DNA from: an uncultured Bacillota bacterium
GTDB taxonomy: Bacteria > Bacillota_I > Bacilli_A > RF39 > UBA660
Assembly (NCBI GenBank): GCA_947168485.1
Contig: CAMVLZ010000002.1
Span: 36,523 to 100,522, forward strand
Direction: 5' to 3'
DNA length: 64,000 nucleotides
In this document: positions 664 through 59,714 of the stretch, piece by piece
Position numbering within the stretch: the first letter of the stretch is position 1
How the letters are laid out: each line of letters begins with the position of its first letter
Made by a program: the position numbers and the translations under genes
The notes under the pieces: model-generated
Told to the model about the DNA's origin: nothing
Database searches by the model: none
The model's input: the letters and a program-made list of their open reading frames with translations, nothing else

Positions 664-1728
664 TTATTTTTTTAAAGTTTTATTTTTCTTTAAAGATTCA
701 TAATCTCTATTTAATCTTTTAGCAAATATCATCTTACAATAATCAGATATTAAATTACCAGTAGATTCATTAGGTCTATCAAAACCATATCTTCTATAAT
801 GTGATTCATCATCAATAATAACATTAGATAAATCAATTTCAGTTAAAATATAATCAACAGTCTCTTTTTCTTCTTCACTAACTATACCTTGTGCAAGAGA
901 CTCTTCTATTAATGTATTAGTATCTACTCTATCATAATTTAATCTATAATATTCACTATTTATAGTAAGCATTAAATTAGATCCTTCAACACTAATTCTA
1001 TTTAATTCTTTTACTGATTTTAAATAATCTAATATATTTTCTTTATCTTCAGAAGATAATTTATCAAAATAATCTTTTTCTTCTTTTAATAAAGTACCCT
1101 GATTTTTGATTGATACTAATCTAGCTAATTCACTTTTACGTTCTTCTATTCTCTCTTTAAGTTTTTCTCTACCAAATAATTTATGTTGTAATTTCTCTAA
1201 ATCCTCATCTAATGATTTAGATAATTCCATTAATTTTTCTTCTAGATCAGTATGTTCTTCTTTCCACTTATTATATCTAACAGTAGAAGAATTATTATTA
1301 ATTTCATCTTCTAATTTTTCTATAGTTAAATGTTTACCATTAAATGTAAGAGGATAATACTCTCTATCTTCATTAATCCATTCATAATCATGATAACCAT
1401 GATATTCATAATTATCAGTAACTTCATAATGACCTTTTTCATGATAAGCATCTTTAGAATCTTCAACGTAATCAAAGCTATTACCTTCTATAAAGAATTT
1501 TGAATCTTCTTCAACTTTAATTCCTAAAGATTCTAATTTTTCTAATTTAGATTCAACTACTTCTCTTTGTTTAACAAATTGTTCTCCATAAACTTGAACT
1601 ATATCTAATAATTCATCTTCTTTTTTTCTAGCAACCATTGGTTTAGCACTAGCAACCTTCTTAAAGTAATTTAATAACTCCTCATTATTAATTATAAAAT
1701 GATACATTTTAATTAATTCTTCTGACAT
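664..1728 (-). CDS. hypothetical acidic coiled-coil protein with a His/Tyr/Asp/Glu-rich patch; no signal peptide or TM
   Basis: 354-aa ORF with AGGAGG 8 nt upstream of the ATG. The patch is AYHEKGHYEVTDNYEYHGYHDYEW (residues ~94-117). I recognise no family. It is monocistronic, between a riboswitch-like leader and a terminator. Confidence 0.75.
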   Translation of the reverse strand: MSEELIKMYHFIINNEELLNYFKKVASAKPMVARKKEDELLDIVQVYGEQFVKQREVVESKLEKLESLGIKVEEDSKFFIEGNSFDYVEDSKDAYHEKGHYEVTDNYEYHGYHDYEWINEDREYYPLTFNGKHLTIEKLEDEINNNSSTVRYNKWKEEHTDLEEKLMELSKSLDEDLEKLQHKLFGREKLKERIEERKSELARLVSIKNQGTLLKEEKDYFDKLSSEDKENILDYLKSVKELNRISVEGSNLMLTINSEYYRLNYDRVDTNTLIEESLAQGIVSEEEKETVDYILTEIDLSNVIIDDESHYRRYGFDRPNESTGNLISDYCKMIFAKRLNRDYESLKKNKTLKK

Positions 1729-1756
1729 TTTTTTGTCCTCCTATATCTCGTCTAAC

Positions 1757-1871
1757 AAAAAAGACGAGAACATTTTTATTTCAATGTGTCTCGTCCGAAT
1801 TACTTCTTATATTCCGGGTAAATAATTACCGATTGACGAAATATAACATTTAAGGACTACTCCCAAATTGA
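1757..1871 (-). promoter_or_regulatory. riboswitch-like leader, copy A (yybP-ykoY / Mn2+-like aptamer plus intrinsic terminator)
   Basis: Minus strand: UCAAUUUGGGAGUAGUCC...UUAUAUUUCGUCAAUCGGUAAUUAUUUACCCGGAAUAUAAGAAGUAAUUCGGACGAGACACAUUGA, then GACGAGA(CA)...UCUCGUC+U6. The helices can be drawn by hand. The strings GGGAGUAG, UCGUCAAUCG, CCGG and CGAGAC occur in the same order as I recall for Mn2+ riboswitches. Confidence 0.6.
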
Positions 1872-1878
1872 TGTACAT

Positions 1879-1907
1879 ATTATACCACAAAATTGCCATT
1901 TTGTCAA
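1879..1907 (-). promoter_or_regulatory. SigA-type promoter of leader copy A
   Basis: Minus strand TTGACA (1907-1902), 17-nt spacer, TGgTATAAT (-10 at 1884-1879). Confidence 0.75.
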
Positions 1908-19164: not shown

Positions 19165-21588
19165 TTATTCAACTGAATCTAATAAGTTAGAACCATCATC
19201 CTCTTCATCAGCAATTACTTTAACATCATGTTCTTTTACTTTAATATCTACTATTTCATTATCTTCATCTGAAGGAATATCAACTTCTTCACTTGTATCA
19301 ACAACATCTTCTACAGTAGTATCAATATCTTCTACATCATCAATAGGTTCTGGTTCAACATATTTAACTTCAGGTTTTGGTTCTTCATGTTTAACAGGTC
19401 TACCAACAACTTCCCAGTTATTAGATCCTTCTGGTTTTCTAATAACACCTTGTTCTTCTAATTGATCTACTATACGACCTGCTCTATTATAACCAACTTT
19501 AAATTTTCTTTGAATCATAGAAGCAGAAGCTTTATTAGTACTTACAACTAATTCAACTACATCATCAAATAACTCATCTAAATCTTCTGAAGAAACTCCT
19601 CCTCCACTAACACTAGTAGAACTTAAATTAGATAAACTATCATCATAATTAGCTTCTTGTTGTGTTTTAACATAATCAGTTAATCTCTTAATTTCTTCAT
19701 CATCTATAAATGAACCTTGAATACGAGTTGGTGTATTACTTCCAATTGGTAAGAATAACATATCTCCTTTACCAAGAAGTTTTTCAGCTCCAGTAGTATC
19801 TAAAATAGTACGAGAATCAATTCCAGATCCAACAGCAAAAGCAATACGTGAAGGAATATTAGCTTTAATTAAACCAGTAATAACCTCAGTAGATGGTCTT
19901 TGAGTCGCAACAATTAAATGCATACCAGCAGCTCTTGCTTTTTGAGTAATTCTAAGAATAGAATCTTCAACATCCTTAGCCGCAACCATCATCAAGTCAG
20001 CTAACTCATCAATGATTATAACAATATATGGCATCTTAGATTTCTTATTATTAGGATGCTTTAAATTAAATTTCTCAATATATTTATTATAACTTTCTAT
20101 ATTTTTAGTTCCAGTATCAGAAAACATATGATATCTATTTTCCATCTCTTGAACCATTTTCTTAAGTAACATAGAAGCTTGTTTAGGATCATTAACAACA
20201 GGACACATCAAATGAGGTATTCCATTATATACAGATAACTCAACTACTTTAGGGTCTACCATAGCAAGCTTTACTTCATCTGGTTTAGCTCTCATCAATA
20301 TAGAACAAATAATACCATTAACACATACACTCTTACCAGAACCAGTAGTACCCGCAATAAGTAAGTGTGGCATCTTATCTACTCTACAAGTACCAATATC
20401 ACCCATTATAGTTTTACCTAATGGTACAAGTAATTTTTCATCTAATTTAGACTTCATCTCATTAGAATCAATTATTTCTCTAAATGAAACCGCTACTGCT
20501 TGATCATTCGCAAACTCTATTCCTACAGTTTTCTTACCAGGAATAGGTGCTTCTATTCTTACATCTTTCTTTCCTAAAGCTAATGCTATTTCTCTATTAA
20601 TAGAAGTAATTTTATTAACTCTTGTACCAGATGCTATCTCTAATTCATATTGACATACTGTAGGTCCAACATGTACTTCTTTAACTGTAGATTTTATACC
20701 AAAATCTTTTAAAACACTCATTAATAGATCAGCATTACTCTCTATCGCAGCATTTTGTTTCTTCTCATCTATATTATCTTCTTTAAGCTTATTTAATAAA
20801 TCAACAGAAGGTAATTGATAATTCTCATTAACAACAATCTCTTTAGGTTTAACTTGTACAACCTCTTCTTGTTTAGGTTCTTCCTTCTTTTGACCAATAC
20901 CAGTAATTAACATTTGAGTACGAGAAAGTTCTTCTTCTTTTCTTTCTTCTTCCTCTAATTCTTTCTTTTCTTTTTCTTTAACTTTCTCATCATGTTTCTC
21001 TTCTATAGAATCAAACTTATCAACAATCTTTTCTTTCATCTCTTTAAATGTATCTAAACCAATTATTAAGAATAATCCAATAATCATAAAAATACATGAA
21101 ACTATATACATACCTACTTTAGAAAAACATAATACAAAGAAAGCAGCTAGAACACCTCCAATTATTCCACCTCCACAGTAGAAATAATCAGTAATAGTAC
21201 CACCTTTCATAATAACATCATAAGTCTTAGTAATATGATCCATAGTATTACTAATAGTAACCATAACACCCTTTTGTTCTATGAAAAAACCTTTATGAAA
21301 AACAATTATTAATCCTAAAAACAATAAGTAGCAACCCATCATCCTAATACTAAAGAAATCAAAATCTTCTCCATAAATAAGTAATAATATACCAATAACT
21401 ATAAAACTTAATAATAATATATAAAAAGCAAAACTACCAACTAACGCAACAAAAACAAAATGTAAAAATTTACCAACTACACCTAGATTACCTAATCCAA
21501 GTACCGCAATAATAATAAATAATACACCTAAAAGTTGTTTACTATACTTAAAAACAGTTTTCTTTTTCTTTCTACCTCTTTTTGCCAT
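19165..21588 (-). CDS. ftsK: DNA translocase FtsK/SpoIIIE
   Basis: N-terminal TM helices, Walker A GTTGSGKS, a gamma domain (MIQRKFKVGYNRAGRIVDQLE) and a 79-aa acidic tail. ATG at 21588 is preceded by AAGGAG. Confidence 0.9.
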   Translation of the reverse strand: MAKRGRKKKKTVFKYSKQLLGVLFIIIAVLGLGNLGVVGKFLHFVFVALVGSFAFYILLLSFIVIGILLLIYGEDFDFFSIRMMGCYLLFLGLIIVFHKGFFIEQKGVMVTISNTMDHITKTYDVIMKGGTITDYFYCGGGIIGGVLAAFFVLCFSKVGMYIVSCIFMIIGLFLIIGLDTFKEMKEKIVDKFDSIEEKHDEKVKEKEKKELEEEERKEEELSRTQMLITGIGQKKEEPKQEEVVQVKPKEIVVNENYQLPSVDLLNKLKEDNIDEKKQNAAIESNADLLMSVLKDFGIKSTVKEVHVGPTVCQYELEIASGTRVNKITSINREIALALGKKDVRIEAPIPGKKTVGIEFANDQAVAVSFREIIDSNEMKSKLDEKLLVPLGKTIMGDIGTCRVDKMPHLLIAGTTGSGKSVCVNGIICSILMRAKPDEVKLAMVDPKVVELSVYNGIPHLMCPVVNDPKQASMLLKKMVQEMENRYHMFSDTGTKNIESYNKYIEKFNLKHPNNKKSKMPYIVIIIDELADLMMVAAKDVEDSILRITQKARAAGMHLIVATQRPSTEVITGLIKANIPSRIAFAVGSGIDSRTILDTTGAEKLLGKGDMLFLPIGSNTPTRIQGSFIDDEEIKRLTDYVKTQQEANYDDSLSNLSSTSVSGGGVSSEDLDELFDDVVELVVSTNKASASMIQRKFKVGYNRAGRIVDQLEEQGVIRKPEGSNNWEVVGRPVKHEEPKPEVKYVEPEPIDDVEDIDTTVEDVVDTSEEVDIPSDEDNEIVDIKVKEHDVKVIADEEDDGSNLLDSVE

Positions 21589-21666
21589 ATTATATACTCC
21601 TTTAGTCTCTAATAATATTATACTACATATTATTTCAATATTAATATAATTTATCATAACTTTACA

Positions 21667-21694
21667 CAAAAAAAGTAGAAACAAGTTCTACTTT
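21667..21694 (-). terminator. intrinsic terminator after the 488-aa gene
   Basis: AAAGUAGAA-CUUGU-UUCUACUUU followed by a U-run. It overlaps the stop codon. Confidence 0.7.
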
Positions 21695-23154
21695 TTAATC
21701 TTTTTAAGTGTTCTAGTAAAAGCAAGAATTCTATTAGTTTTATCGATTTCTTTATCTTCAATATCTTCTTTAATATCTTCATCATTAGTAATTGAATCAG
21801 CATGAAATATATCATATAATAATTTAGCTTCATTACTATGTTTAGCCATAATATCATTATCTATAAATATTTTTCTAAATACTTCACTAGATAATGGATA
21901 TTTATCAGGATCTTCATAATGTTCTATCTTTCTAACAGTAAATATCGCATCAATTAATTTTCTCTTAGAAATATCAGATACTAATAGTTTTTTTGATTCT
22001 TCTTTAAATCTTTTTACTTTTTCTTCATAATAATAACCAAATTTTAGTACATCAGGTATTCCTAAATCTAAAACATCAACAAATATTTCTGGTAATAGAT
22101 TACTTCCAATTAATTGGTTACTAATTCTATTAAGTTGATCTAATGTTTCTTTATCAAGTTCTTCATAATTACCACTTTCATATATTTCAATAAATTTCTC
22201 AATAAAATATCGCGGATTAGAAGAAAACTCTCTATCAATAAATCTTTTATCTGTACTAAGAGAAGCAACAAGTGATTTACCAAAGTGCTTATATGAAGAT
22301 AAATACTCATTATTATCATTCTTTTTAGAATCAAAAGTTGGATCAAAAACATAATAACCATCTAAATTATATTTATCATCTTTAATATATACAATACTAT
22401 TAGCATGACCAGAAGTACCATTTTTACCCTTAAGATAATGTTCTTTACATTCTATACCTAATCCTTCAAGTACAGCATTAAATACTCTAGCATAACCTAA
22501 ACATACTATATTATCACCTAATAAAACAGAAGATAAATCTCTAGAGTCAAATGCAGAATATTCATCATCAACTTCATTGTATACTCTATCACGAACTAAA
22601 TCATAAGCAAAAGCAACTTTTTCTAATGGACTAAGATCATACTTATTAATATGAGAAACTATTTCATCAATAATTAAAACAGATTTTTCATATGTATCTA
22701 AATCAACATAATTATCATTACCTTTAACTTGTAACTGTAAATTATCTACATCACCAAATAAACTAATAAGTTTATTATAATCATCTTTAGAAACAGATAA
22801 TTTATCTGTAACAATAACTTCATCAAAACTATTATGTTTTAAAAATTTACTACTATTTTCATCCAAATTAACAAAACAATTACACTCTTCTAATAAATTA
22901 GCCTCTCCAGATACACATTCTTCCAATAATTTAAGTGTTTTAGGAGCATCACCAAAGAATGCAGGATCATCCATAAAAGCATATACATCATCTTTATAAG
23001 AAGAAAAAGCTCTCTCTAAAACAGGTCTAATCATATCCATAGTTAAAGTCTTTTCACTATAACTTGAGTTCATATCAAGAACTACCACATCTCCATAATA
23101 AGAAACTTCAATGTCTTCTAAATCATCTTTGAAAACAAAATAAATATTTTTCAT
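21688..23154 (-). CDS. cytoplasmic transglutaminase-like (Cys-His-Asp core) protein
   Basis: 488-aa ORF with no signal peptide or TM. Core: NIVCLGYARVFNAVLEGLGI ... GHANSIVY ... YYVFDPTFD. It is monocistronic behind leader copy B. Confidence 0.7.
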   Translation of the reverse strand: MKNIYFVFKDDLEDIEVSYYGDVVVLDMNSSYSEKTLTMDMIRPVLERAFSSYKDDVYAFMDDPAFFGDAPKTLKLLEECVSGEANLLEECNCFVNLDENSSKFLKHNSFDEVIVTDKLSVSKDDYNKLISLFGDVDNLQLQVKGNDNYVDLDTYEKSVLIIDEIVSHINKYDLSPLEKVAFAYDLVRDRVYNEVDDEYSAFDSRDLSSVLLGDNIVCLGYARVFNAVLEGLGIECKEHYLKGKNGTSGHANSIVYIKDDKYNLDGYYVFDPTFDSKKNDNNEYLSSYKHFGKSLVASLSTDKRFIDREFSSNPRYFIEKFIEIYESGNYEELDKETLDQLNRISNQLIGSNLLPEIFVDVLDLGIPDVLKFGYYYEEKVKRFKEESKKLLVSDISKRKLIDAIFTVRKIEHYEDPDKYPLSSEVFRKIFIDNDIMAKHSNEAKLLYDIFHADSITNDEDIKEDIEDKEIDKTNRILAFTRTLKKIKK

Positions 23155-23179
23155 AAAAATTCTCCTTTAAGGTCTTATC

Positions 23180-23294
23180 AAAAAAGACGAGACCATTTTT
23201 ATTTCAATGTGTCTCGTCCGAATTACTTCTTATATTCCGGGTAAATAAATACCGATTGACGAAATATAACATTTAAGGACTACTCCCAAATTGA
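23180..23294 (-). promoter_or_regulatory. riboswitch-like leader, copy B (yybP-ykoY / Mn2+-like aptamer plus terminator)
   Basis: About 135 nt nearly identical to copy A (3 substitutions) from the -10 region to the U-tract. The terminator is GACGAGAC...GUCUCGUC+U6. Confidence 0.6.
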
Positions 23295-23301
23295 TGTGCA
23301 T

Positions 23302-23330
23302 ATTATACCACAAAATAAGGAAAATGTCAA
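23302..23330 (-). promoter_or_regulatory. SigA-type promoter of leader copy B
   Basis: TTGACA (23330-23325), 17 nt, TGgTATAAT (-10 at 23307-23302). Confidence 0.75.
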
Positions 23331-23336
23331 TTAAAA

Positions 23337-23358
23337 CAAAAAAAGAGCTTACGCTCTT
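23337..23358 (-). terminator. intrinsic terminator of efp
   Basis: AAGAGC-GUAA-GCUCUU followed by U-run. It includes the efp stop codon. Confidence 0.7.
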
Positions 23359-58006: not shown

Positions 58007-58035
58007 AAAAGATGGCTTATTTTAAGCCATCTTTT
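58007..58035. terminator. bidirectional terminator
   Basis: AAAAGATGGCTTA-TTT-TAAGCCATCTTTT. It overlaps the proS stop. Confidence 0.75.
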
Positions 58036-59714
58036 ACGTATGTAACAATCTTTTTAACTACATCTTTTGAAGATACTTCTAAAGTATTATCATTTCTTCT
58101 TTCTTTCCATTCAACTATACCATCTTCTGCTTTCTTACCTACAGTTATTCTTAATGGTATACCTATTAAATCCATATCTTTAAATTTAACTCCAGCTCTT
58201 TCATCTCTATTATCATAGATAACTTCAATACCTTTCTTAGTTAAATCATTATATATTTTTTCAGCTAATTTAGTTTGAGTTTTATCTTTCATATTAATTT
58301 GAACTAAACTAACTTGATATGGAGCTATATTCATAGGTAGAATCATACCATTCTTATCATTATTTTGTTCAATAATAGAAGCTAATATTCTACCTGGTCC
58401 AATACCATAAGAACCCATAATTGGATATTGTTCTTGGTTATTTTCATCTAAATAAGTAATACCTAAATCTCTACAATAATGATCTCCTAATTTAAATAAA
58501 TTACCTATTTCAATACCATGTTTAAAGTAAATATTACCTCCACACTTAGGACAAATATCTCCTTCAACAACATTAGCAATATCTCCAACTATATCATAAT
58601 TAATATCTTTAACATTTGCATTAATATAATGATAATCAGTCTTATTAGCACCACAAACAAAATTCTTCATATGAAGTACTTCTTCATCAACAACAACTGT
58701 ACAACCAGTTAATCCAACAGGACCAGTATATCCAGGTGCTGCATTAGATTCAGCTATTTGTTCATCATTAGCAAAACCAATCTCTTTACCACCCATTAAT
58801 TTTAATGCTTTTTCTTCATTTAAAGAACGATCTCCTCTAACAAAGAATATAGTTAATTTACCATCTACATGCATTAATAATGCTTTAACAGTATGCTTAA
58901 TATCAACATTTAAAAAATCAATAACATCTTCTATAGTGTGAGCATCAGGAGTATGAACCATTTCCATTTCTTTCTCTTCTTCTTCAACATCTAATATTTT
59001 ATAAGAAGCAACTTCCATATTAGAAGCATAATCACATTTATCACATAAAACTAATATATCTTCACCAATATCAGTAATTGCTTGATACTCTTCTGATAAA
59101 GTACCACCCATCGCACCAACAGAAGCTCTAACTATTTTATAATTAATATCCATACGATCAAATACATTACAATATGCATCATACATCTTCTTATAAGATT
59201 CATTTTGCATCTCTTCATCTCTATCAAAAGTATATGCATCTTTCATAATAAATTCTTTAACTCTAATTAATGCATATCTAGGACGTATTTCATCTCTAAA
59301 TTTATCAGCTTGTTGATATAGATTAAATGGTAAATCTTTATAACTTTTTAAATACATAGAAGCTGCTATAGCAAATAATTCTTCATGAGTAGGACCTAAT
59401 ACCATATTAGTATTCTTTCTATCATGTAATTTAAACATACTATCTCCAAAAGCTTCTACTCTACCACATTTTTCATAATACTCTCTAGGTATTAATGAAG
59501 GCATTAAAACTTCCATTGCTCCTGCAGCATCCATTTCTTCTTTAATAATCTTTTTAATTTTATCTAAAACTCTTAATCCTAATGGCAAATACATATAAAT
59601 ACCTGCCCCAACCTTTTTTATCATTCCACTACGTACTAATAAATTACCACTAGTACTATCTTCATCTTTAGCATCTTCACGTAATGTGAAAAAATAATTT
59701 TTATCTAATTTCAT
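58017..59714 (-). CDS. proS: prolyl-tRNA synthetase (bacterial type with an insertion domain)
   Basis: Class II motifs (FRDEIRPRYALIRVKEF, GSYGIGPGR). 565 aa, with a T-box carrying a CCU specifier upstream. Confidence 0.93.
   Translation of the reverse strand: MKLDKNYFFTLREDAKDEDSTSGNLLVRSGMIKKVGAGIYMYLPLGLRVLDKIKKIIKEEMDAAGAMEVLMPSLIPREYYEKCGRVEAFGDSMFKLHDRKNTNMVLGPTHEELFAIAASMYLKSYKDLPFNLYQQADKFRDEIRPRYALIRVKEFIMKDAYTFDRDEEMQNESYKKMYDAYCNVFDRMDINYKIVRASVGAMGGTLSEEYQAITDIGEDILVLCDKCDYASNMEVASYKILDVEEEEKEMEMVHTPDAHTIEDVIDFLNVDIKHTVKALLMHVDGKLTIFFVRGDRSLNEEKALKLMGGKEIGFANDEQIAESNAAPGYTGPVGLTGCTVVVDEEVLHMKNFVCGANKTDYHYINANVKDINYDIVGDIANVVEGDICPKCGGNIYFKHGIEIGNLFKLGDHYCRDLGITYLDENNQEQYPIMGSYGIGPGRILASIIEQNNDKNGMILPMNIAPYQVSLVQINMKDKTQTKLAEKIYNDLTKKGIEVIYDNRDERAGVKFKDMDLIGIPLRITVGKKAEDGIVEWKERRNDNTLEVSSKDVVKKIVTYVKDGLK

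Follow-up and report, generated by a model that had tools for sequence, protein, structure and literature searches.

The minus strand of the 64,000-nucleotide stretch of contig CAMVLZ010000002.1 analysed here (the window), which derives from an uncultured Bacillota bacterium, carries two nearly identical leader sequences, copies A and B, 21 kb apart and each 5' of a monocistronic gene. Copy B most probably (with a likelihood of about three in four) represents a complete cis-acting leader, in which a strong sigma-A-type promoter is followed by an aptamer of the yybP-ykoY class and an intrinsic terminator, arranged as an ON switch with a predicted second tier of control through a post-terminator segment, X, and in which the near-identity to copy A reflects gene conversion. 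Judged by its sequence and deduced structure, the leader element is a member of the yybP-ykoY (Mn2+-type) riboswitch class, in a three-way-junction form and with a predicted ligand. The class and the reduced architecture are already known; three aspects go beyond the existing class descriptions, namely the cargo genes, the extra helix formed by segment X and the concerted evolution of the copies.

The block of copy B that matches copy A occupies positions 23180-23315 of the window, on the minus strand, and the whole leader, from the -35 hexamer to the start codon, extends over 23330-23154. As an intrinsic terminator of the upstream gene efp is located directly 5' of the promoter, leader B should be insulated from efp transcription. 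The promoter fits the consensus in all 12 positions and also has the TG of an extended -10 element; its core, TTTTGTGGTATAAT, is common to copies A and B, to a diverged third copy in the same assembly (copy C) and to a homologue in another genus. The leader and the transcription unit that it heads (unit B) comprise the following features.

23343-23358, minus strand: intrinsic terminator of the upstream efp (terminator scan; efp named by Pfam)
23302-23330, minus strand: promoter of unit B, with the -35 TTGACA at 23330-23325, a 17-nt spacer and the extended -10 TGgTATAAT at 23310-23302
23201-23295, minus strand: predicted aptamer of copy B, a three-way junction of the yybP-ykoY type (covariance models, covariation, sequence)
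23180-23218, minus strand: leader terminator, with the 5' arm GACGAGAC at 23218-23211, the 3' arm AUGGUCUCGUC at 23196-23186 and a U6 tract at 23185-23180 (minimum free energy (MFE) folds, sequence)
23171-23176, minus strand: post-terminator segment X of copy B, AAGACC (duplex against shuffles, p = 0.006)
23152-23167, minus strand: Shine-Dalgarno AAGGAG at 23167-23162 and ATG at 23154-23152 of gene B
21688-23154, minus strand: gene B, 488 aa, a cytoplasmic transglutaminase-like protein (weak Pfam PF01841 match, homologues, AlphaFold, Foldseek)
21667-21694, minus strand: terminator closing the monocistronic unit B (hairpin and U-run)

A structure model of the aptamer was obtained by visual comparison of the three copies with one homologue in another genus. 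In copy B, on the minus strand, its elements are as follows.

23294-23287 with 23211-23204: P1.1, in which UCAAUUUG pairs with CACAUUGA
23286-23281 and 23215-23212: L1, with the 5' strand GGGAGUAG (listed as GGGAGUA, 23286-23281) and the 3' strand GAGA (23215-23212)
23280-23277 with 23219-23216: P1.2, GUCC/GGAC, which covaries to GUUC/GAAC in copy C
23276-23270: 7-nt linker UUAAAUG, replacing P2
23269-23260 with 23239-23230: P3.1, 10 bp
23259-23254: L3, the one-sided loop UCAAUC
23253-23240: P3.2 hairpin, 5 bp
23229-23220: P4 hairpin, GAA-GUAA-UUC

The linker at the position of P2 is UUAAAUG in both A and B, and UGAAAUA in C. An alignment of the diverged copies by MAFFT was structurally unsound, and a covariance model (R1) was instead seeded from A and B with the hand-derived structure; a second model (R2) has 95 positions. 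Copy B scores 120 bits with R1 and 101.7 bits with R2. Searching 201 genomes of the family with R1 identified the element in four further genomes. Among the first seven sequences, 95% of cells were paired and compensatory changes were observed in 21 of 30 pairs, a level reached by none of 500 shuffles. After R2 and a scan for the exact pattern in 185,579 species genomes had enlarged the set, pairing was observed in 93.2% of cells over 33 distinct sequences, with compensatory changes in 27 of the 30 pairs and all five helices covarying; in slid controls only 35-45% of cells were paired. These alignments were fitted to the model and hence favour the structure by construction, albeit with a large margin over the controls. 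A preliminary description of this DNA had proposed that the leaders are functional RNA cassettes, and had suggested looking for compensatory changes among aligned relatives; such changes are now found throughout the structure, and the strong covariation upholds the proposal.

The yybP-ykoY class is defined by the docking of L1 on L3, with Mn2+ held by phosphates and by the N7 of an invariant L3 adenosine (PMC6754395). L1 supplies a GGA from its 5' strand and an invariant AGA from its 3' strand, L3 supplies a C-A, and short single-stranded segments can stand in for P2 and P4, as in the three-way junction of Streptococcus pneumoniae mgtA, where an invariant UNAAA (N = U or G) takes the place of P4 (PMC6649816). 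In copy B, GGGAGUAG and GAGA(C) stand where the class has a GGGGAGUAG-like 5' strand and the invariant AGA, and these are kept in aligned relatives. Furthermore, UCAAUC lies between P3.1 and P3.2, with its 'CA' retained in nearly all aligned sequences, and the two legs, P1.1-L1-P1.2 and P3.1-L3-P3.2, meet at a junction in a covariation-supported arrangement. The 3' strand of P1.1 is shared with the terminator, a feature of ON switches in this class, and the same overlap is present in all relatives inspected. The junction departs from the canonical four-way form with P2 and P4 in having the 7-nt linker instead of P2, which does not exclude membership. Neither copies A and B nor copy C precede a metal exporter or membrane protein of the kinds associated with the class (MntP, TerC, P-type ATPase, UPF0016).

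Class membership is concluded from this agreement of motifs and architecture with the literature, and from relatives that R2 connects with the leader. Across 401 genomes of the class-level lineage, R2 matched in 25 genomes, and outside the leader's own family the matches lie mostly just 5' of genes for P-type cation ATPases, Na+/Ca2+ exchanger-like proteins or a Na/Pi transporter; P-type ATPases are known cargo of yybP-ykoY riboswitches (PMC8632737). A short P2 hairpin is present in some of these transporter-linked relatives and absent from the rest. The Rfam model of the class, RF00080, finds nothing above its cut-off in 41, and subsequently 300, related genomes of the same class-level lineage. 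It does flag 15 sub-threshold loci (24-34 bits), ten of which are matched by R2 at the same places, including L065/L147. Remaining below cut-off in all 300 genomes implies that RF00080 is insensitive to AT-rich, reduced forms. The loci found by the 95-position model in other families of the class (L042-L064 and L141-L154) are likewise mostly missed by RF00080 of Rfam 15, even where they are 5' of P-type ATPases, and the Rfam seed seems to under-represent three-way-junction forms.

The aptamer and the terminator should exclude one another, as they draw on the same strands. In MFE folds, the terminator 5' arm, GACGAGAC, is made up of the 3' strands of P1.2 and L1 plus the initial base of the P1.1 3' strand, the remainder of which falls in the terminator loop. 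The terminator thus takes both its 5' arm and its loop from the 3' strands of the aptamer, and an aptamer held in the bound state would block termination. In characterised members, P1.1 is a weak switch helix which, when stabilised, prevents the terminator from forming (PMC6754395). By analogy with these, we infer a divalent-metal ligand and ON logic: binding of the metal would dock L1 on L3 and stabilise P1.1, and the bound aptamer would hold the 3' strands of P1.2, L1 and P1.1, such that transcription would read through into the transglutaminase-like gene. A different arrangement is seen in leaders of ATPase and other genes in sister families (L051, L053, L055, L057, L058, L061), which have no terminator. 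There, the Shine-Dalgarno sequence (AAAGGAGG) is itself the pairing partner of the P1.1 3' strand, GACCUUU, and the same aptamer would act as a purely translational ON switch.

Copy A has the same layout, its block matching copy B at 1757-1892 on the minus strand.

1757-1907, minus strand: copy A leader, with the -35 at 1907-1902, the -10 at 1884-1879, the predicted aptamer at 1778-1872, the terminator 3' arm at 1773-1763 and the U-tract at 1762-1757
1726-1752, minus strand: segment X of copy A, GACGAGA, at 1752-1746, Shine-Dalgarno AGGAGG at 1742-1737 and ATG at 1728-1726
664-1728, minus strand: gene A, 354 aa, followed by a hairpin and U-run at about 640-672

Weak evidence of transcription is available for this copy. 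A 200-nt contig from a bovine-gut metatranscriptome corresponds to 1671-1870 without a mismatch, starting 9 nt after the -10 of copy A, passing the terminator and entering open reading frame (ORF) A; its depth is about 2, at which carry-over of DNA is possible. No metatranscriptome coverage was found over the 350 nt 5' of this contig (1871-2220).

Beyond the terminator, the 3' arm is in both copies complementary to segment X. In copy A, UCUCGUC of the 3' arm pairs with GACGAGA at 1752-1746, above shuffled controls (p = 0.000), and in copy B, GGUCU (23194-23190) pairs with AGACC at 23175-23171 (p = 0.006 relative to shuffles); the CCUU of the copy B segment abuts the Shine-Dalgarno sequence. 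The preliminary description had noted this helix and its different sequences in A and B, and it proves to recur. Complementarity to the 3' arm is present in six of the first seven family copies, each time with a different sequence (p <= 0.006 against shuffles), and a segment X was recognised in at least 13 of 16 related leaders inspected. Among ATPase-linked relatives it is uncommon, at about 4 of 17 scorable. Column-wise counts of pairs were precluded by a ragged MAFFT alignment of the expression platforms, so that pairings were read sequence by sequence; automated parsing of X missed several sequences, in which X was taken as U-tract, and the counts therefore combine the duplex test with inspection by eye. 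Four further examples of the segment are these.

Segment X of leader G032: CAAGACCUUUAU
Segment X of leader G106: CAAGACCUUUA
Segment X of leader G075: CCUUCACAU
Segment X of leader G109: ACUCCUGC

The best-sampled group consists of eight orthologous leaders of a Nuc_deoxyri_tr2-like gene of approximately 145 aa. In these, the duplex of X and the 3' arm is about 12 bp long and shows compensatory changes in L129 and L115; the 3' half of X pairs in turn with the Shine-Dalgarno sequence (CCUUUAU/AUAAAGG, CCUUCAU/AUGAAGG and UCUUUAUAA/UUAUAAGGA), so that the helix between X and the arm competes with a hairpin masking the Shine-Dalgarno. After the U-tract and ahead of X, leaders of this type (L120-L129) also keep a UUUACUUUUUU motif, in which UUUAC duplicates sequence of the P1.1 3' strand (CUUUUAC) and might compete for the P1.1 5' strand.

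As X is transcribed after the decision to terminate, it can have no influence on termination and must act on read-through RNA. When the aptamer is bound, the terminator 3' arm would be free to pair with X, leaving the Shine-Dalgarno open; when it is unbound, the terminator would form and, in those transcripts that escape it, X would mask the Shine-Dalgarno. The leader may therefore gate translation as well as termination, the translational tier being hypothetical. Two-state folding gives a clear shift in Shine-Dalgarno accessibility for some leaders only (G032, C and B), which does not establish translational control of A and B.

The assembly (1.26 Mb in 45 contigs) contains three copies of the leader: A, B and the diverged copy C, which was found on contig 15 by a DNA search, with 80% identity over 59-72 aligned nt. 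A covariance-model search recovered the same three copies and none further. Copy C has the same promoter core and layout and precedes a gene for an acidic protein of 217 aa; each of A, B and C is 45-57 nt 5' of a same-strand ORF. These counts exclude a repeat resembling a miniature inverted-repeat transposable element (MITE) with dozens of randomly oriented copies, as there are three, all 5' of a same-strand ORF. They agree with the small regulon suggested in the preliminary description, which had also advised counting copies in this genome and its relatives: the leader heads three unrelated monocistronic genes. Within the family the element is present in 12 of 301 genomes, representing 11 of 214 genera, at 1-8 copies each, and it was found in none of four genomes of the same genus. 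All of the more than 45 copies identified lie about 5-130 nt 5' of a same-strand ORF. A DNA search of 60 relatives with the 131-nt leader returned mostly the shared promoter consensus and one real homologue. The closest relatives by MutL are rumen metagenome-assembled genomes labelled 'uncultured Erysipelotrichaceae', 'Firmicutes' or 'Bacilli', and the leader sequence occurs in gut metagenomes of sheep, cattle and goat.

Few of the genes following the element in this family resemble the known cargo of the class. Protein B has no signal sequence and a weak match to Pfam PF01841, with C218, H250 and D271 invariant in 23 homologues. Its AlphaFold model is confident (predicted local distance difference test score 82.9) and has as top Foldseek matches S. 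pyogenes TglA, the transglutaminase 4xz7, putative cysteine proteases and LapG; the modelled core matches transglutaminase-like and papain-like enzymes. No relative of protein B was found in named genomes by the related-locus search, and no leader was found 5' of its homologues in other genera. No recognisable domain was found in the soluble proteins A (354 aa) and C (217 aa). Across the family, at least 17 unrelated groups of cargo can be told apart, almost all of them non-transporter. Recurrent types are the Nuc_deoxyri_tr2-like protein (9 species), for which a Protein Data Bank sequence search returned nothing meaningful, a membrane-anchored protein of 236 aa, a protein of 196-210 aa and SPFH/NfeD proteins; an exchanger is found as cargo in G153 only. 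SPFH/prohibitin-like and NfeD-like genes follow the element in three genera (G025, L137; G572, L140; G109, L076), which hints at a link between sensing of divalent metals and quality control of membrane proteins. One genome of another genus in the family (G109, 1.6 Mb) has eight copies (C1:108601, C4:20663, C5:63411, C7:13417, C12:5951, C18:2762, C22:3963 and C22:6630), none of them before a transporter; its cargo includes an SPFH/band-7 protein, two very small peptides (one with a His-rich tail, the other highly charged) and several soluble or membrane-anchored proteins.

Several observations weigh against the explanation proposed for the leader. RF00080, the gathering threshold of which is 45 bits, has no match at E <= 10 to a 301-nt query and none in the genome, and Rfam searches in gathering mode (whole window) and permissive mode (element) returned only chance-level matches to small RNA (sRNA) and microRNA models at the element. 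The class assignment bridges to its transporter-linked relatives via R2, a model fitted to the leader's own structure. L3 is 6 nt long here and 7 nt in most of those relatives. In Lactococcus lactis, too, L3 is 7 nt long, as against 6 nt in copies A and B. As to Mn2+ as the ligand, the S. pneumoniae relative also binds Ca2+, and more tightly (PMC6649816). None of the three copies stands before a metal transporter gene. The support from RNA consists of the one low-depth contig of copy A, contigs of copy B being too sparse or from other strains. Masking of the Shine-Dalgarno is weak or absent for A and B, where computed accessibility changes little and only the pairing of arm with X is evident. 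Finally, the argument for gene conversion, given below, involves a handful of substitutions and one other strain.

The genome's own genes for the usual cargo in sister families provide a further point of the same kind. Its genes for a Ca2+/Mn2+-type P-type ATPase (contig 39, about 3374, minus strand) and a Na+/Ca2+ exchanger-like protein (contig 23, about 5650, plus strand) both have plain promoters and ordinary short leaders, without a riboswitch in either case.

One way to accommodate the absence of Mn2+ exporters would be for the same fold to report another signal, with the three-way form with a 6-nt L3 responding mainly to Ca2+, another divalent ion or pH. The almost entirely non-transporter cargo of the family, the L3 one base shorter than in most transporter-linked relatives and the preference of the S. 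pneumoniae three-way relative for Ca2+ would all fit, as would the coupling of this fold to pH in Escherichia coli alx (PMC13594968). This is nevertheless unlikely, because the metal-contacting positions named in the literature (GGA and the 3' AGA of L1, and the C-A of L3) are all kept, L3 lengths of 6 and 7 nt both occur inside the family group, and no new conserved block that might form a different pocket can be discerned, the linker being unconserved among the eight G109 copies.

The similarity of A and B is confined to the leader. Pairwise alignment from TTTTGTGGTATAAT through the end of the U-tract gives three differences in 136 nt, listed here.

C at 23298 (B), T at 1875 (A): just after the -10, with no evident effect
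U at 23249 (B), A at 1826 (A): loop-closing position of the P3.2 hairpin, U.U in B and A-U in A
G at 23193 (B), U at 1770 (A): terminator 3' arm, where B gains an eighth stem pair, C-G

Outside the block, the -35/-10 spacers, the 25-30 nt between U-tract and start codon and the ORFs could not be aligned. The preliminary description of two leaders differing at three positions, with unrelated spacers, Shine-Dalgarno regions and ORFs, and of two monocistronic units, each closed by a terminator of its own, is thus correct in each particular. It had attributed the near-identity to selection or gene conversion. Selection alone cannot account for identity that extends over both loops and stems, as copy C, in the same genome, maintains the fold with a sequence far less alike.

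A diverged strain in one metagenome sample helps to distinguish the possible origins of this pattern. Its A and B proteins are 81-82% identical to those studied here, and leaders (A' and B') are present at both orthologous genes. The first 30 nt, all of them leader sequence, are shared by its two contigs, as expected of an overlap where an assembly graph leaves a repeat, so A' and B' are probably identical further upstream too. Past these 30 nt, the terminator loop and arm hold about five differences between A' and B', as against one between A and B. Segment X is identical between orthologues (A and A', B and B') and different between paralogues. As leaders were at both genes before the strains split, and yet in the terminator loop paralogous leaders resemble each other more closely than orthologous leaders do, the close match of A and B indicates gene conversion between pre-existing paralogous leaders, rather than a mobile element, with conversion tracts probably ending at or before the U-tract.

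The three differences in 136 nt, and the sharp end of identity at the promoter spacer and the U-tract, might also be produced by a very recent duplication or insertion of the leader before an unregulated gene, with no ongoing conversion; the homologues of protein B in other genera have no riboswitch, and the genomes of the same genus have none either. This is quite improbable. The strain at 81-82% protein identity already has both leaders and the same gene-specific X, so that the arrangement predates the strain split, and A and B are closer to one another in the terminator loop than are A' and B', or than the orthologues are. The X of copy B (AAGACCUU) moreover resembles the X/terminator consensus of other genera (CAAGACCUUUAU), which fits an older leader at gene B that has been partly overwritten.

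The same strain bears on the post-terminator helix. At the two arm positions that pair with the CC of segment X in copy B, both B and B' keep GG; A and A' show GU or UG there, and their X pairs further downstream. This pattern argues for a function of the helix, with the numbers small and drawn from one other strain. The G at 23193 was considered as a derived compensatory change specific to B and rejected, as the diverged strain makes G probably ancestral and the U of A derived.

It is very unlikely that the terminated leader of about 115 nt is mainly a trans-acting sRNA positioned incidentally 5' of genes. Each copy does have a strong promoter and terminator, and the permissive search revealed weak sub-threshold similarity to streptococcal sRNA models, with E about 1. 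All of the more than 45 copies are nevertheless about 5-130 nt 5' of a same-strand ORF, the terminator always overlaps the switch strands of the aptamer, X links the terminator to the Shine-Dalgarno and the RNA contig reads into ORF A. A mobile, MITE-like repeat or an assembly artefact, as might be suspected from near-identical sequence at two loci 21 kb apart and a depth over the shared part of about three times that of the flanks in contigs of a DNA run, can be dismissed, given that there are three copies in 1.26 Mb in the same orientation relative to the gene, that terminal inverted repeats or target duplications are not visible at the identity boundaries, that the structure covaries as a riboswitch, that both loci are present in independent samples and that raised depth is the expectation for collapsed repeat k-mers.

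A broader interpretation can tentatively be offered, which we regard as possible rather than probable. The Mn2+-type riboswitch may have left the metal exporters in this rumen lineage, becoming a general metal-responsive regulator of a changing set of mostly non-transporter genes (1-8 per genome), encoding transglutaminase-like, nucleoside-deoxyribosyltransferase-like, SPFH/NfeD and coiled-coil proteins and small peptides; it would have been spread and homogenised by gene conversion, with a four-helix relay gating both termination and translation initiation. There appears to be a low-GC, three-way-junction branch of the class that is missed by the Rfam model, including members 5' of the classic ATPase targets. 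In one rumen family this branch stands before non-exporter genes, up to eight per genome, which are candidates for an unexplored response to an excess of divalent metal. The conserved and covarying post-terminator helix suggests a relay coupling termination to translational control, and the A and B leaders, set against those of the diverged strain, would provide a small natural example of the concerted evolution of riboswitch leaders.

Some neighbouring features may be recorded. Beyond the terminator of unit B, ftsK is served by a separate promoter and Shine-Dalgarno sequence, with an ATG near 21586. The mechanically predicted ftsK ORF (19165-21684, minus strand), with a TTG start at 21684, is judged over-extended in view of the terminator, a promoter-like site and the AAGGAG with ATG near 21586, the latter being the likely true start. 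Elsewhere in the window are a T-box leader (RF00230, 59809-59992, minus strand; 95.6 bits, gathering score 93), 5' of a 565-aa ORF at 58017-59714, and a tRNA gene (RF00005, 7719-7791, minus strand; 66.9 bits).

Relay attenuators, such as the trp leader with its 1:2, 2:3 and 3:4 pairings, and riboswitches with dual control of transcription and translation are natural comparisons for the proposed mechanism. As in a trp-type relay, a chain of mutually exclusive helices (P1.1, the terminator 5' and 3' arms, the 3' arm with X, and X with the Shine-Dalgarno) would pass a single decision to both termination and ribosome binding. The present leaders differ from that of trp in having no leader peptide, and the last step of the chain can be made out clearly for Nuc_deoxyri_tr2-type leaders in related genera only, and not for A and B.

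With the Mn2+ riboswitches of L. lactis yoaB and Xanthomonas oryzae (PMC6754395, PMC9190785), the leader shares the two docking legs, an L3 adenosine at the A41/A48 position and, by class analogy, the use of P1.1 as an antiterminating switch helix with ON logic. Those riboswitches are four-way junctions with P2 and P4 and are recognised by RF00080, whereas the present leader lacks P2, is very AT-rich and has no RF00080 score.

A further close parallel is the S. pneumoniae mgtA riboswitch (Martin et al. 2019, PMC6649816). There, P4 is the missing helix, whereas here P2 is replaced and a P4 of 3-4 bp is kept; furthermore, the cargo of copy B is transglutaminase-like rather than an ATPase, there are three copies in the genome and there is an additional post-terminator helix. 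Both belong to low-GC Gram-positive lineages and share their L1 and L3 motifs, a three-way junction where a UNAAA single strand (UUAAAUG/UGAAAUA here) replaces one peripheral helix, and a terminator directly after the aptamer, and the relatives of the present leader found by the model precede the same kind of P-type ATPase.

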